Assembly (NCBI GenBank): GCA_963695095.1
Contig: CAVOFT010000001.1
Coordinates: forward strand, 224,001 to 288,000
DNA length: 64,000 nucleotides
DNA from: an uncultured bacterium
GTDB lineage: Bacteria; Krumholzibacteriota; Krumholzibacteriia; JACNKJ01
Direction: 5' to 3'
Below the pieces are notes generated by a model that worked only from the letters and a program-made list of their open reading frames with translations, was not told the DNA's origin and ran no database searches. A program made the position numbers and the translations under genes. Numbering within the stretch: the first letter of the stretch is position 1; each line of letters starts with the position of its first letter. Of the stretch, positions 10,571 to 13,907 are shown in pieces.

Positions 10571-10918
10571 ATGCGCCCGAAGCGATTCCAGCGAGATATG
10601 GGCCATGCACTCTTGCTGATGCTCTTGGCAGCCCCTCTAGCCGGTACAAGCCCAGCTCTTGCCGCCGGCTCTGACCTTCCTTCAGGCGACGATTACGATG
10701 ACGGAGCAAACATCTGCATGCTGGGACGATTGGCTACTCCGCATCGCAGCACAGGCGAAGGCGCGCCGGAAGGGGCGGTCCGTCGCCGCCATGGCGACGA
10801 CGATGACGATGGAGTAAATCTGACTTCACTGCGACTGTATCTCACCCCGCCGCTCTTGATCCCGATGGCGACCCGGCCCGCCATGTCTTCGATTTGTGCG
10901 CGCTGGCAAATCCATTAG
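10571..10918 (+). CDS. Small secreted protein/peptide precursor with two GDDxDDG motifs
   Basis: RBS aaggagg; signal peptide ending ALA; GDDYDDGAN and GDDDDDGVN. Confidence 0.6.
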   Translation: MRPKRFQRDMGHALLLMLLAAPLAGTSPALAAGSDLPSGDDYDDGANICMLGRLATPHRSTGEGAPEGAVRRRHGDDDDDGVNLTSLRLYLTPPLLIPMATRPAMSSICARWQIH

Positions 10919-10980
10919 GCGCCGCCGTCCCAGGGGCGACGCCCACACTGCAGCTTCCGCGCTGGCTCAGGCGCTCCACT

Positions 10981-11010
10981 CCCTGGCCGCCCCTTTTGGG
11001 GCGGCCAGGG
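10981..11010 (+). terminator. Perfect GC-rich hairpin after the first peptide gene
   Basis: ccctggccgcccc-tttt-ggggcggccaggg (13-bp stem). Confidence 0.55.
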
Positions 11011-11031
11011 GCGCGAGGCCCCACTTCTCAA

Positions 11032-11060
11032 TTGACCATCCCCAGCGTCTCGGCTAAACT
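11032..11060 (+). promoter_or_regulatory. Putative sigma70 promoter
   Basis: TTGACC-N17-TAAACT, about 195 nt upstream of the second peptide gene. Confidence 0.5.
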
Positions 11061-11255
11061 TCCTTACGCGTTTCAGGATCAGGGACTAGGGGTCAGGATT
11101 CCCAGCGACTTCCCCGCCCTCCCCATGGCCACATCACTTTGTGGCGCACCCGTTGCTGGATCCTGCCGGCATACTCCACCGGTACCCCATCCCCATAACT
11201 GGTCCCCGCCGCTACCAGGGGATCAGGCTTGGCGTAAACGCTAAGGAGCTTCTTC

Positions 11256-11504
11256 ATGGTTAGGCGAAGGCGCACCAAGCTCTGGCCGCTATTCCTGGCG
11301 CTTCTTCTCATCTCCCTTTGGAGCACGCCACTCTTCGCCCGCGAGCCCCAATCAGGACCCGGAGGGCTACAATCTGCGAGAAGCATCGAAGCTGATGGTG
11401 ACGATGATGACCAAGGGAGGCACAGTCGTCTGCGTAACCACATCTGGTTCTTGCAACGAGCTACTGCAGGACACTTCGCTGGGTCGGTAGGACTCGAGCC
11501 GTGA
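11256..11504 (+). CDS. Small secreted peptide precursor with GDDDDQG motif
   Basis: RBS taaggag; classic signal peptide MVRRRRTKLWPLFLALLLISLWSTPLFA; acidic motif shared with 10571..10918. Confidence 0.65.
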   Translation: MVRRRRTKLWPLFLALLLISLWSTPLFAREPQSGPGGLQSARSIEADGDDDDQGRHSRLRNHIWFLQRATAGHFAGSVGLEP

Positions 11505-11519
11505 CAAGGAAGCGGGCCG

Positions 11520-12236
11520 ATGACTGAAGCGGAAGATGATTCGAGATTCGTCCTAGGATGGGATCATATCCCGGACGAGTTGCTTAACGATCTCCAGGCC
11601 GTTGAGTAGTCGGGTCTCTCGCCTAGCGTCGAGATGCAGCGGCCACTTCGCTTTCGCGTGGCACTTTCTGGCAAGTACGACCTGGCGCCTCACGCCGCCT
11701 TCTGGAAGGCCGAGGAACCACCACTTCGGCGACACCCAGATGGAGCTTAGCAATCTACTCCTGAGCAACCAGGGCCTATCTCGACGTTGCGGAAGGAGCC
11801 CGAGCTCGTGCAGCATGGGAGACCTTGACTCAATTGACCGCGGGGATGGGCTTGAGCCGATAGATCTGCTTCGCGGATTGGAAGCGCTGGAAGGGACGCA
11901 GCGATCCTACGGCGCGGCGAGGTGAACGCGCGGAGCAGGTCCTGATGCATGCCCGACATCTCGCCGAAAGACGTGGCGTTCCCGCGCTGCTTGGGATGGC
12001 GCATGTGCAATTGGGAATCCTTAGCAAGACCCGTGGGGACTACAGTCTATGCCGCAAGGTACTTTGAAATGGCGCTTCAGGATGCAATTCCGAGAGTCGT
12101 CATAGCCGGAGCGATCTGTGAGTTCGCGCACCGAGCAACCCGATGATTCGCTGGAGGAAGCACGGCCAGCTTCACGATCGGCGGCGTCCATGGCTGGAGA
12201 TCGTTCGCAAGCCGTCACCAATGCGGTAGGCACCAT
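11520..12236 (+). pseudogene. Frameshifted/degraded N-terminal TPR part of the sigma54 activator
   Basis: ATG 11520 with upstream aagga; TPR-like fragments in shifting frames (AEQVLMHARHLAERRG..LGMAHVQLGILSKTRGDY; AARYFEMALQ; LEEAR) lead into the 12237 ORF. Confidence 0.5.
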
Positions 12237-13907
12237 GTGCTCTACCTCAACGAATTCGCCCGCCTGCACATCGCCCTCGAGGATGAGCACGAAGCCCGCA
12301 AGCACATCGAGATGATCGCGCAGGCCACGGACGAACACACGCCCATCCGCAGCCGCGTCATCAGCCACGAAGTGCGTGCCGACTACCACAAGCTCCGCGG
12401 CGAATGGAAAGAAGCCCTGGCCGCTATCGACGCCGGGCTCGAGCTGGCCTACGAAATCTCCGAGCAGAACGACCTGGTCGGCGAGCTGCTGCGTCGCCGC
12501 GCCCGCGCTCTCTACGAGCTCGCGCGCGACGACGAAGCCTTCGCGGCGGCCAAGCGGAGCCTCGAAGTCTGCGAGCGCGTCGGCGAAGTCTACGAGATCG
12601 GCGCGCTCTTCCGCACGCTGGGCCTCCTCGCCGAGCGCCGCAGCGACTTCGCCGAGGCCGAGAACCTGCTGCTGAAGGCCGTCGAGTTCTACCGCGACAA
12701 GGACGAGAAGTACGAGCGCGCCTTCAGCCACCTCGCGCTGGCCGGCTTCTACGAGCGTGTCCATGCCACCCGTAAACGGGAAGACGACCTCCGCGAGGCC
12801 TTCCGCCACACCGCCAGCGCGCTCGGCCTCTTCGATGAGATGGGCATCGCGCCGCGCGTCGCCGAGGGCCGCGCCCGCCTGGACGCCATCAGCGAGCGCT
12901 TGCCGAGCAAGCCCTTCACGCCGCCCGACGGTCAGACACTCGCCGCCCTGGGCAAGGCGCACGGCATCATCAGTGCCGATGCCTCGATCGCCAATTTGCT
13001 GGAAGTGCTCGACACCGTGGCGCCCTCGGACGCCGCCGTGCTCATCACGGGCGAAACCGGCACCGGCAAGGAGCTCTTTGCGCGCGCGCTGCACAAGCTG
13101 AGCGGCCGCAAGGGCGACCTCGTCATCGTCAACTGCGCGGCCATCCCCGACGAGCTCATGGAGAGCGAGCTCTTCGGCCACCTCAAGGGCTCCTTCACCG
13201 GCGCCCATCGCGACCGCAACGGCAAGTTCGCCCAGGCCGACAAGGGCACGCTCTTCCTCGACGAGATCGGCGACCTCAGCCCGCGCCTCCAGGCCAAGCT
13301 CCTGCGCGTGCTGCAGGACGGCATCTACAGCCCCGTCGGTTCGGACGAGGACTGCCATGCGGACGTCCGCGTGGTCAGCGCCACCAACCGCGACCTGCGC
13401 GCGCGGGTGGCCGACGGCCGCTTCCGCCGCGACCTGCTCTATCGCCTGAACCACGTGGTGCTCGCCCTGCCGCCCCTGCGCGAGCGCGGCGACGACGCGG
13501 TGCTGCTCGCCACCTACTTCCTGCACGAGGCGAGCACGCGCCTGGGCCGCAAGCTCGTGCTCGACCCGCACGCGGCCGACAAGATTCGCGAGTACCCCTG
13601 GCCCGGCAACGTGCGCGAGCTGCAGAACCTCGTGCGCCGCCTGGCGCTGTTCGCCCGCGACACCGGCCGCCTCAGCGTGGACTTCCTGCCCGAGAGCGTG
13701 ATCACGCCGGTGGAGGACTTCAGCAACGACCTCGCCGCCATCCTGCTCAAGGCCGAGAAGGACGCCATCGTCGCCGCCATCGTCCGCGCCCGCGGCAACA
13801 AGGCGGCGGCGGCCCGCATGCTCGGCGTCAGCCGCAGCACCCTGAACGACAAGATCGCCCGCCTCGACCTCAGCGTCGAGCGCCTCGCCCGCGCTACGCG
13901 GGCCTAA
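12237..13907 (+). CDS. sigma54-dependent enhancer-binding protein with N-terminal TPR repeats and Fis-type HTH (true start probably about 11520)
   Basis: GETGTGKE, ESELFGHLKGSFTGA, LFLDEIGD, FRRDLLYRL, WPGNVRELQN, GNKAAAARMLGVSRSTL; TPR-like helices upstream. Confidence 0.93.
   Translation: MLYLNEFARLHIALEDEHEARKHIEMIAQATDEHTPIRSRVISHEVRADYHKLRGEWKEALAAIDAGLELAYEISEQNDLVGELLRRRARALYELARDDEAFAAAKRSLEVCERVGEVYEIGALFRTLGLLAERRSDFAEAENLLLKAVEFYRDKDEKYERAFSHLALAGFYERVHATRKREDDLREAFRHTASALGLFDEMGIAPRVAEGRARLDAISERLPSKPFTPPDGQTLAALGKAHGIISADASIANLLEVLDTVAPSDAAVLITGETGTGKELFARALHKLSGRKGDLVIVNCAAIPDELMESELFGHLKGSFTGAHRDRNGKFAQADKGTLFLDEIGDLSPRLQAKLLRVLQDGIYSPVGSDEDCHADVRVVSATNRDLRARVADGRFRRDLLYRLNHVVLALPPLRERGDDAVLLATYFLHEASTRLGRKLVLDPHAADKIREYPWPGNVRELQNLVRRLALFARDTGRLSVDFLPESVITPVEDFSNDLAAILLKAEKDAIVAAIVRARGNKAAAARMLGVSRSTLNDKIARLDLSVERLARATRA

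Follow-up and report, generated by a model that had tools for sequence, protein, structure and literature searches.

A gene for a small, predicted exported protein paired with a TPR-containing sigma-54 activator gene in one Krumholzibacteria family, and a broken copy of the pair in an uncultured member

We analyzed a 64,000-nucleotide (nt) stretch of DNA, hereafter the window, from an uncultured bacterium of the phylum Krumholzibacteriota (GTDB lineage Krumholzibacteriia; JACNKJ01; GenBank assembly GCA_963695095.1, contig CAVOFT010000001.1, positions 224,001 to 288,000 of the forward strand). In the window, two short open reading frames (ORFs), ORF1 and ORF2, lie upstream of a gene for a sigma-54 activator with tetratricopeptide repeats (TPRs). 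Comparison with relatives suggests that this region is a decaying copy of a two-gene sigma-54 module, in which the gene for a small, predicted exported protein directly precedes the activator gene. The pair is a conserved module of one Krumholzibacteria family and is apparently undescribed. As a tentative explanation, held at somewhat less than an even chance, we propose that the small protein and the activator form a cognate sensor-partner loop with autoregulation, operating through a re-imported peptide or an unexported precursor.

Anatomy, conservation, and selection of the gene pair

ORF1 (positions 10571..10918, + strand) encodes a predicted exported protein of 115 amino acids (aa) with two copies of an acidic motif (GDDYDDG and GDDDDDG) and a hydrophobic C-terminal part. 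ORF2 (11256..11504, + strand) encodes a predicted exported protein of 82 aa with a single copy (GDDDDQG). The ribosome-binding sites are AAGGAGG, 7 nt 5' of the ORF1 ATG, and AAGGAG, 9 nt 5' of the ORF2 ATG. By inspection, both N termini resemble signal peptides: basic residues are followed by a hydrophobic stretch and by a site of the A-x-A type (between ALA and AG in ORF1 and between LFA and RE in ORF2). Both ORFs with their strong ribosome-binding sites and signal-peptide-like starts, and the three copies of the motif, had been reported in a first-pass annotation of this DNA and are present as described, the export signal being judged by eye. The six-frame translation of the 3,639,475-base genome contained three matches to GDD[DYWE]DD, two of them within ORF1 (GDDDDQ of ORF2 is not covered by this pattern), and the clustering of the acidic motif at the locus is beyond chance. 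Neither NCBIfam nor Pfam gave a family match for the small proteins. ORF1 represents a multi-motif paralogue type, and ORF2 the type that is always found directly 5' of the activator gene.

A small ORF was located directly 5' of the activator gene in all 11 orthologous loci with upstream DNA. These comprised nine genomes with full-length ORFs (73-107 aa), one metagenome contig (L063), and the L022 locus of G008, in which the ORF is cut by the contig end. The encoded proteins carry a predicted signal peptide, the GDDxDD motif, and a hydrophobic C-terminal tail. In an alignment of 11 small proteins (A2), M1, R3, P30, G49, D50, D51, and D53 were invariant, and Ala occupied the predicted -1 cleavage position in 11 of 11 sequences. 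A Pro-rich or GPEDY stretch was also present, and the C-terminal tail of 15-18 residues was amphipathic and aromatic rich, with a conserved central Arg or Lys. The stop codon of the small ORF overlaps the activator ATG as TAATG in L018, and the spacing is 0 nt in L063, 1 nt in L019, 2 nt in L017, L020, and L021, 15 nt in the window, and 29 nt in L013.

Across the neighborhoods compared, no other gene stayed with the pair. A DUF2231 gene adjoins it only in the window's genus, moxR lies upstream in L019 and L063, and DUF58 lies downstream in G005, G010, and G004, within 0.5-8 kb. Since the other neighbors vary, the pair moves as a unit; its conservation, coupling, and mobility, and the lack of any constant third gene, point to a joint function of the two proteins. 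Activator orthologues (E below 1e-78) were confined to one family among 208 genomes of the phylum, and only six representatives were found at E<=1e-30 among 1.84 billion; at E<=1e-10 the number was 782, which includes generic TPR proteins. The small-protein profile retrieved only 14 proteins among 5.8 billion clusters; the four of these with a source name were all annotated as hypothetical protein, with Candidatus Krumholzibacteria given as the source of one. A single-sequence scan of genome contigs found nothing, and in alignment-based contig scans L063 was the sole new locus with a usable upstream region.

The ratio of nonsynonymous to synonymous substitution rates (dN/dS) of the small ORF was 0.13-0.42 in the seven of 10 pairs for which it was computable, compared with 0.08-0.17 for the first 467 activator codons and 0.02-0.04 for the part encoding the AAA+ and helix-turn-helix (HTH) domains; dS was near saturation in many pairs. 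The small ORF is under purifying selection. This result, together with the motif-bearing ORFs found beside the homologous activators, agrees with what the first-pass annotation had anticipated. Mean pairwise distances were largest for activator residues 1-235 (0.71) and the small protein (0.67), smaller for residues 236-467 (0.37), and smallest for the AAA+ domain (0.31); no parts evolve faster than the small protein and the initial TPR repeats. The partial correlation between the small protein and activator residues 1-235, given the AAA+ domain, was 0.69 among phylogenetically dependent pairs, and the correlated divergence of the two is only suggestive.

Several side observations concern the pair and the small protein. 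The genes moxR and DUF58 flank the pair in L019, L063, and G005, and in L019, L063, L018/L025, and L026 these flanking genes are part of a Bat-like (MoxR/DUF58/BatA) cluster; a second module was not found in the moxR-DUF58 interval of the window's genome (C1:518-525 kb), which holds other genes. The sequence D-x-N-x-S/T (e.g., DDDFNIT) often occurs past the acidic motif (L013, L016, L022, P0026, and P0027), and its Asn is not conserved. D-x-N-x-S/T corresponds to the Campylobacter-type N-glycosylation sequon. A role as an N-glycosylation substrate (PglB sequon D/E-x-N-x-S/T) was rejected, as no STT3 (PF02516) was found in G000, G002, G006, or G008. A sorting signal of the PEP-CTERM type was rejected likewise: the A2 sequences have no PEP and no terminal Arg cluster, and carry one central basic residue.

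The broken copy in the window and candidate regulatory DNA

The open remainder of the activator gene (12237..13907, + strand) encodes 556 aa from a GTG start and covers the later TPR repeats, the AAA+ domain and its lid, and a Fis-type HTH. In Pfam, TPR_12, Sigma54_activat (PF00158, E 4.4e-65), AAA_lid_14, and HTH_8 (PF02954, E 1.3e-10) were assigned, and receiver, GAF, and PAS domains were all absent. The translation contains GETGTGKE (Walker A), LFLDEIG (Walker B), and a GSFTGA loop, and rpoN is present in the same genome (PF04552, 217 bits). With an AAA+ domain bearing Walker motifs and a GAFTGA-type loop, a Fis-type HTH, and rpoN in the genome, the protein is a sigma-54 enhancer-binding protein; no NCBIfam equivalog attained its cut-off.

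The 733-nt stretch between ORF2 and the GTG at 12237 is not intergenic; it is the decayed sequence of the first ~235 activator codons. This pseudogenized 5' third (11520..12236, + strand) starts at the ancestral ATG (11520), 16 nt past the ORF2 stop with a 15-nt gap between them, and holds TPR-coding remnants in three frames with in-frame stops. By tblastn, residues 131-215 of the relative P0003 aligned to 11915-12172 (E 2.6e-12) across two in-frame stops, with an overlapping segment in another frame from 12051, and at least five frame changes were counted in the remnant. The GC content is 0.56-0.64 over 10350-12300 versus about 0.67-0.75 in the flanks. Orthologues are ~800 aa long: in 10 of 11 family-level relatives the reading frame stays open over 725-827 aa (a contig end cuts off the shortest, of 725 aa), and the nine database relatives that are not obvious fragments have 619-814 aa, compared with 556 aa in the window. 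The window's genome matches only residues 235-789 of the 790-aa P0003 (83% identity), and the TPR part of its activator (query residues 1-245) is 87% identical to P0002. P0011, from another assembly and 94% identical, is N-terminally cut at the same point, just before YLNEFARL, and runs out of frame past about residue 165. The shared cut point and this further frameshift argue against a simple assembly error, and P0011 suggests that the activator gene is decaying in this species-level lineage. The part encoding the AAA+ and HTH domains is still open; it may remain under selection, or the break may be recent. The first-pass annotation had placed an activator with a TPR sensory region 3' of the two ORFs. 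Its domains and co-orientation held up; the truncation of the gene at the sensor end had been missed there.

The small ORFs are also altered. The closest relative of ORF2, P0024, shares 77% identity over residues 1-35 only, and BLASTP could not align the two beyond that point. The close relatives P0023-P0026 retain GPEDYH...GDDDDDDF[HN]IT and a hydrophobic tail; after residue 35, ORF2 instead reads GDDDDQG, followed by a basic spacer and an extended C terminus that is not hydrophobic. From these alignments, ORF2 is judged to have lost the hydrophobic tail of its family. The ORF1 type is a second, longer paralogue with two to five motif copies, found farther 5' in the window, L013, L014, and L063, as sought on the + strand within <=2.6 kb upstream. 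The syntenic equivalents past the DUF2231 gene have five motifs in L013 and two in L014, and L063 has a four-motif one. ORF1 and the L013 protein matched by tblastn at E 1e-6 without composition correction, and the BLASTP match with correction (E 12) was not significant. A GC-rich hairpin (CTGGCCGCCCC-TTTT-GGGGCGGCCAG, 10983..11008, + strand) follows ORF1; it is terminator-like and has no T-run, and a comparable hairpin lies 3' of the ORF1-type gene of L013. ORF1 and ORF2 may well be non-functional in this genome, yet derive from real genes. By analogy, the multi-copy motif paralogues look like multi-unit pheromone precursors.

Candidate sigma-54 promoters and enhancers were found around the module. 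Upstream of ORF2, the GG-N10-GC element TGGCGCACCCGTTGCT (11142..11157, + strand) lies 114 nt 5' of the ORF and has the top matrix score in 4001-14000. The corresponding offset to the ORF2-type ATG is 115 nt in L014 and 116 nt in L013. GG-N10-GC also occurs 157-160 nt upstream in L017 and L019-L021, at the aligned position in L063, and at 141 nt in L018 (nine loci in total). About 125 nt upstream of this element, L017, L018, and L063 carry tandem perfect TGTCCG-N6-CGGACA palindromes, and L019-L021 carry versions with one to two mismatches. At the level of candidates, the palindromes and GG-N10-GC have the classical geometry of enhancer-binding-protein targets. Before ORF1, a candidate -24-like element (TGGCACGGCACCTGAG, 10520..10535, + strand) lies about 50 nt 5' of the ORF, with an imperfect -12 GC (GA). 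In L013 and L014, TTGGCAC/TTGGCGT occupies the equivalent position 5' of the ORF1-type gene, and the canonical TGGCAG-N5-TTGCC was found only at the ORF1-type gene of L063. A perfect palindrome in the window, TGTTCG-caagga-CGAACA (13996-14013), lies 90 nt past the activator stop and resembles the relatives' enhancer half-sites. It has no counterpart in G002 or G008, is inside a probable minus-strand membrane-protein ORF, and was treated as a chance occurrence.

The 5' untranslated region (UTR) of about 140 nt before the small ORF is highly conserved in L017, L019, L020, L021, and L063 and includes TAGTCAGTCTGATAGCATC. A hairpin in it, GCCAGCCCC...AAGGAG...GCTGGC, would sequester the Shine-Dalgarno sequence. 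In RNAalifold, the covariation term for these five loci was +2.48 kcal/mol, so that the fold was unsupported, in an alignment with too little variation for a test, and Rfam returned one sub-threshold CrfA match only for four loci.

Two minus-strand genes precede ORF1. A DUF2231 membrane protein is encoded just upstream (9812-10396), and beyond it lies a gene (8043-9593) for a B12-binding radical SAM protein with DUF4070, which is weakly similar, below all cut-offs, to lipid methylase-type enzymes and to enzymes that act on ribosomally synthesized and post-translationally modified peptides (RiPPs). The radical SAM gene is 83% identical in G001 and is not beside the module in G002. Between the two genes, antisense to the DUF2231 gene, a sigma-54-like sequence (TGGCAACGCTAGTGCT, 9804-9819, + strand) was observed; it is matched at 15 of 16 positions in L014 as TGGCAACTCTAGTGCT.

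Evidence on a proposed sensing loop and alternative explanations

The sensor region was examined with an AlphaFold2 model of residues 1-467 of the G002 orthologue (pLDDT 92.3, pTM 0.85, 23 helices). In this model the activator is TPR from its N terminus onward, and no membrane segment was seen. When a TPR profile was compared with solved structures, RapF was the best match (E 3.2e-9, residues 84-261 versus RapF 149-330; structures 3ulq, 4i9c, and 4i9e), followed by a match at 1.6e-6. Opp-type binding proteins were found in five of five genomes checked, which shows only that a route of re-import is possible. Among public sequencing runs, no RNA run was listed, and the best DNA run shared 0.10 of the sampled words.

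We propose the following mechanism. The product of the first gene would undergo export and signal-peptidase cleavage, leaving a mature protein of ~50 aa that begins with a Pro-rich, acidic part, continues with the GDDxDD cluster, and ends in an amphipathic helix rich in aromatic residues. The second gene, presumably co-transcribed and often translationally coupled, would supply a cytoplasmic activator of about 800 aa, in which some 11 TPRs precede the AAA+ sigma-54 domain and a Fis-type HTH. What its fast-evolving first TPR repeats detect may be the small protein itself, a fragment that has been processed and taken up again, or the precursor before export. From the candidate -24/-12 promoter, with the palindromes upstream serving as enhancers, the activator would then turn on its own operon; paralogue genes with several motifs, such as ORF1, would be further targets, and a self-amplifying loop resembling peptide autoinduction would result. 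In the window's genome this loop would be broken, with the activator lacking its first ~235 codons and ORF2 its hydrophobic tail, and the remaining 556-aa protein would be either dead or blind to the signal.

Several results weigh against this loop. The GDDxDD core is invariant across genera, and a core with no between-genus variation is not pherotype-like. The top Foldseek matches of the sensor were generic peptide-binding TPR superhelices (LGN/Pins and OGT), not RRNPP receptors. The net charge of the TPR domain ranges from -18 to +6 and is negative in nine of 10 orthologues, and that of the mature small proteins is -2 to -9; there is no overall charge complementarity. Since both partners are acidic, any contact is likelier to be made through the tail than through the Asp cluster. 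Such a contact is hypothetical; a complex prediction with the TPR domain (A1) and the mature small protein (A2, residues 28-78) scored 0.10 against a mark of 0.32, which speaks neither for nor against binding. Signal peptides were assessed by eye. The candidate promoters match only 8-10 of the 12 positions of the sigma-54 consensus. The TGTCCG-N6-CGGACA palindrome was not found near the window's locus or in the stretches of L013 and L014 examined. In five genomes the exact palindrome was not enriched over the control genome-wide, and the two look-alike sites inspected lay in coding DNA or between unrelated genes and were not promoter-like; no regulon was thus found beyond the operon itself. 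The first-pass annotation had suggested RRNPP-like peptide sensing wired to sigma-54. The conserved pair, purifying selection, the RapF match, and the fast-evolving parts favor that idea, whereas the invariant core, the charges, the Foldseek result, the effector domain, and the broken copy in the window speak against it. Peptide sensing by the pair is plausible but unproven.

Furthermore, we sampled more distant activators of the phylum. All 10 second-tier representatives (780-834 aa, E about 1e-15 to 1e-28) had the TPR, Sigma54_activat, and HTH_8 architecture, and a signal-peptide-like ORF of 98-129 aa lay 5' of the activator in seven of the 10 loci, which belong to other families (L090-L099). 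These seven ORFs end <=45 nt before the activator start or overlap the activator gene, and their products combine GEPGxxP with a tail that is hydrophobic and aromatic; the last residue is F in three of the seven (YIF, FIF, and KTF). No homology to the GDDxDD family was demonstrable beyond the signal peptide (hhalign probability 55%), and all seven operons have promoters of the sigma-70 type (TTGACA/TAnAAT) instead; both points count against the loop as proposed here. In L091 and L092, TGTCCCAC/GTGGGACA repeats were observed upstream. An adjacent acidic ORF was absent at the eight loci examined for TPR proteins of ~1050 aa from other families. It is conceivable, though in our view rather doubtful, that pairs of a small exported protein and a TPR-sigma-54 activator are widespread, undescribed autoinducing sensors of peptides or proteins in diderms, a counterpart of RRNPP, with the GDDxDD family as one lineage-specific dialect and ORF1-type proteins as multi-unit signal precursors.

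The small proteins may instead be only the regulated output of the activator: small acidic exported proteins that bind cations or protect the envelope, made under an activator whose TPRs sense an unrelated cytoplasmic cue, so that co-transcription would be mere positive autoregulation. ZraP, under the control of ZraR in Escherichia coli, is an analogue. Candidate enhancers and promoters were found nowhere but beside the module and, in the case of L063, beside the ORF1-type gene, as this explanation would have it; the acidic clusters, which resemble DxDxDG, would suit cation binding, and the TPR domain is itself acidic. In the window and L013, the stand-alone ORF1-type genes have a terminator-like hairpin 3' of them, and the one in L063 has a promoter-like element of its own. 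However, three observations are left unexplained: the near-universal and often overlapping placement directly 5' of the activator gene, the analogous but non-homologous ORFs before seven of 10 distant activators, and the joint hypervariability of the small protein and the first TPR repeats. We regard pure output as possible but, on balance, unlikely.

Less probable still is a periplasmic co-sensor, in which the C-terminal helix would keep the mature protein at the membrane and the acidic loop would report divalent-cation or envelope status to the activator by way of a further membrane component. There are precedents for small membrane proteins that modulate regulators, as MgrB does with PhoQ and PspB/C with PspA/PspF, and the invariant acidic cluster and the amphipathic tail with its conserved basic residue would fit such a role. 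By contrast, no gene for a membrane partner is conserved beside the module, the tail differs from a canonical transmembrane anchor in its shortness (about 15-18 residues) and its central Arg or Lys, and the modeled activator has no membrane segment.

A slightly smaller chance is given to a cis-acting leader ORF, following the logic of SecM, MifM, VemP, and MgtL. Here the runs of Pro and Asp would be hard to translate, and Mg2+, EF-P, or the pulling force of Sec would set re-initiation on the activator gene. The stop/start overlap or gap of 0-2 nt in six loci, the position of P30, P34, and GDDxDD among the best-conserved sites, and the conserved hairpin over the Shine-Dalgarno sequence in the L017/L019-L021/L063 group are in its favor. 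However, the motif occurs two to five times in ORF1-type genes that have no coupled downstream gene, with a hairpin 3' in the window and L013, which places the action of the motif in the protein product. Conservation extends to the cleavage site and the C-terminal helix, and in the window's genus 15-29 nt separate the two genes.

The first-pass annotation had also named RiPP precursors as an alternative, and the form of it considered here is maturation by the adjoining B12-binding radical SAM enzyme. Its gene lies 1 kb upstream, and the protein is weakly similar to RiPP maturases (ApyD, 9.4e-21, far below the cut-off). The gene adjoins the module in only one of the 10 relatives' loci searched (L014), is on the opposite strand with the DUF2231 gene intervening, and neither a maturase, a protease, nor an exporter is conserved with the pair. 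Synteny largely refutes this alternative, which we consider very improbable. Chance ORFs in decaying high-GC DNA are more improbable again: the lowered GC and the pseudogenized gene part over 10350-12300, the divergence of ORF2 past residue 35, and the non-significance of the composition-corrected ORF1-L013 similarity would permit them, but in relatives the ORFs recur at equivalent positions, share this architecture, and are under purifying selection, and the motif is essentially unique to the locus in the genome.

Comparison with known systems

The cargo of the PEP-CTERM/exosortase system (Haft 2006, PMC1569441) is reportedly under sigma-54 control by PrsK/PrsR. That system, like the present module, has small signal-peptide proteins with a C-terminal hydrophobic segment that are linked to a sigma-54 activator and TPR proteins. 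The GDDxDD family differs in that it has neither a PEP motif nor a terminal basic cluster, and its activator is not a response regulator.

Sigma-54 activators of the NtrC, NifA, PspF, and ZraR class are textbook regulators. The activator described here shares Sigma54_activat, AAA_lid_14, HTH_8, and GSFTGA with these classical enhancer-binding proteins, and candidate tandem palindromes lie upstream in six loci. It differs from them in its regulatory domain, a TPR superhelix of ~470 aa in place of a receiver, GAF, PAS, V4R, or PRD domain, and in the obligatory gene for a small exported partner. In the openly accessible literature covered on TPR/sigma-54 enhancer-binding proteins, RRNPP, and Krumholzibacteriota, no such pair is described; a TPR superhelix as the sensor of a sigma-54 activator with a constant, tiny exported partner is absent from it. 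The pair is small and self-contained, consisting of two genes with a promoter and an enhancer, so that reconstitution in E. coli should be possible. The window's copy amounts to a natural deletion, in which the first TPR repeats are gone and the tail of the small protein has diverged, with the ATPase and DNA-binding parts still open.

The closest functional parallel may be the RRNPP pairs of Bacillota and their phages, namely, Rap-Phr, NprR-NprX, PlcR-PapR, and AimR-AimP. As in those pairs, the module has a cytoplasmic, all-TPR sensor with no membrane segment in the model, and a small gene for a Sec-type pre-peptide, assigned to export by its sequence, adjoins the sensor gene and is proposed to be co-transcribed with it. 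The sensor is probably autoregulated, the peptide and the sensor repeats evolve fast, and RapF is the best sequence match among solved structures. Unlike in RRNPP systems, the output relies on AAA+ sigma-54 and C-terminal Fis HTH domains and not on an N-terminal XRE-type HTH or the three-helix bundle of Rap, the peptide gene is upstream and not downstream of the sensor gene, the host is a diderm of an uncultured phylum, and the conserved core is a polyanionic GDDxDD with a hydrophobic tail. With an AAA+ sigma-54 module as its effector, the activator is not a member of RRNPP; by analogy, the module may still work like one. Should the exported protein act back on its sensor, RRNPP-like sensing of a peptide or protein would be extended for the first time beyond Bacillota and their phages, and for the first time linked to sigma-54, and the module would provide a handle on cell-cell or envelope signaling in phyla known from metagenomes alone.

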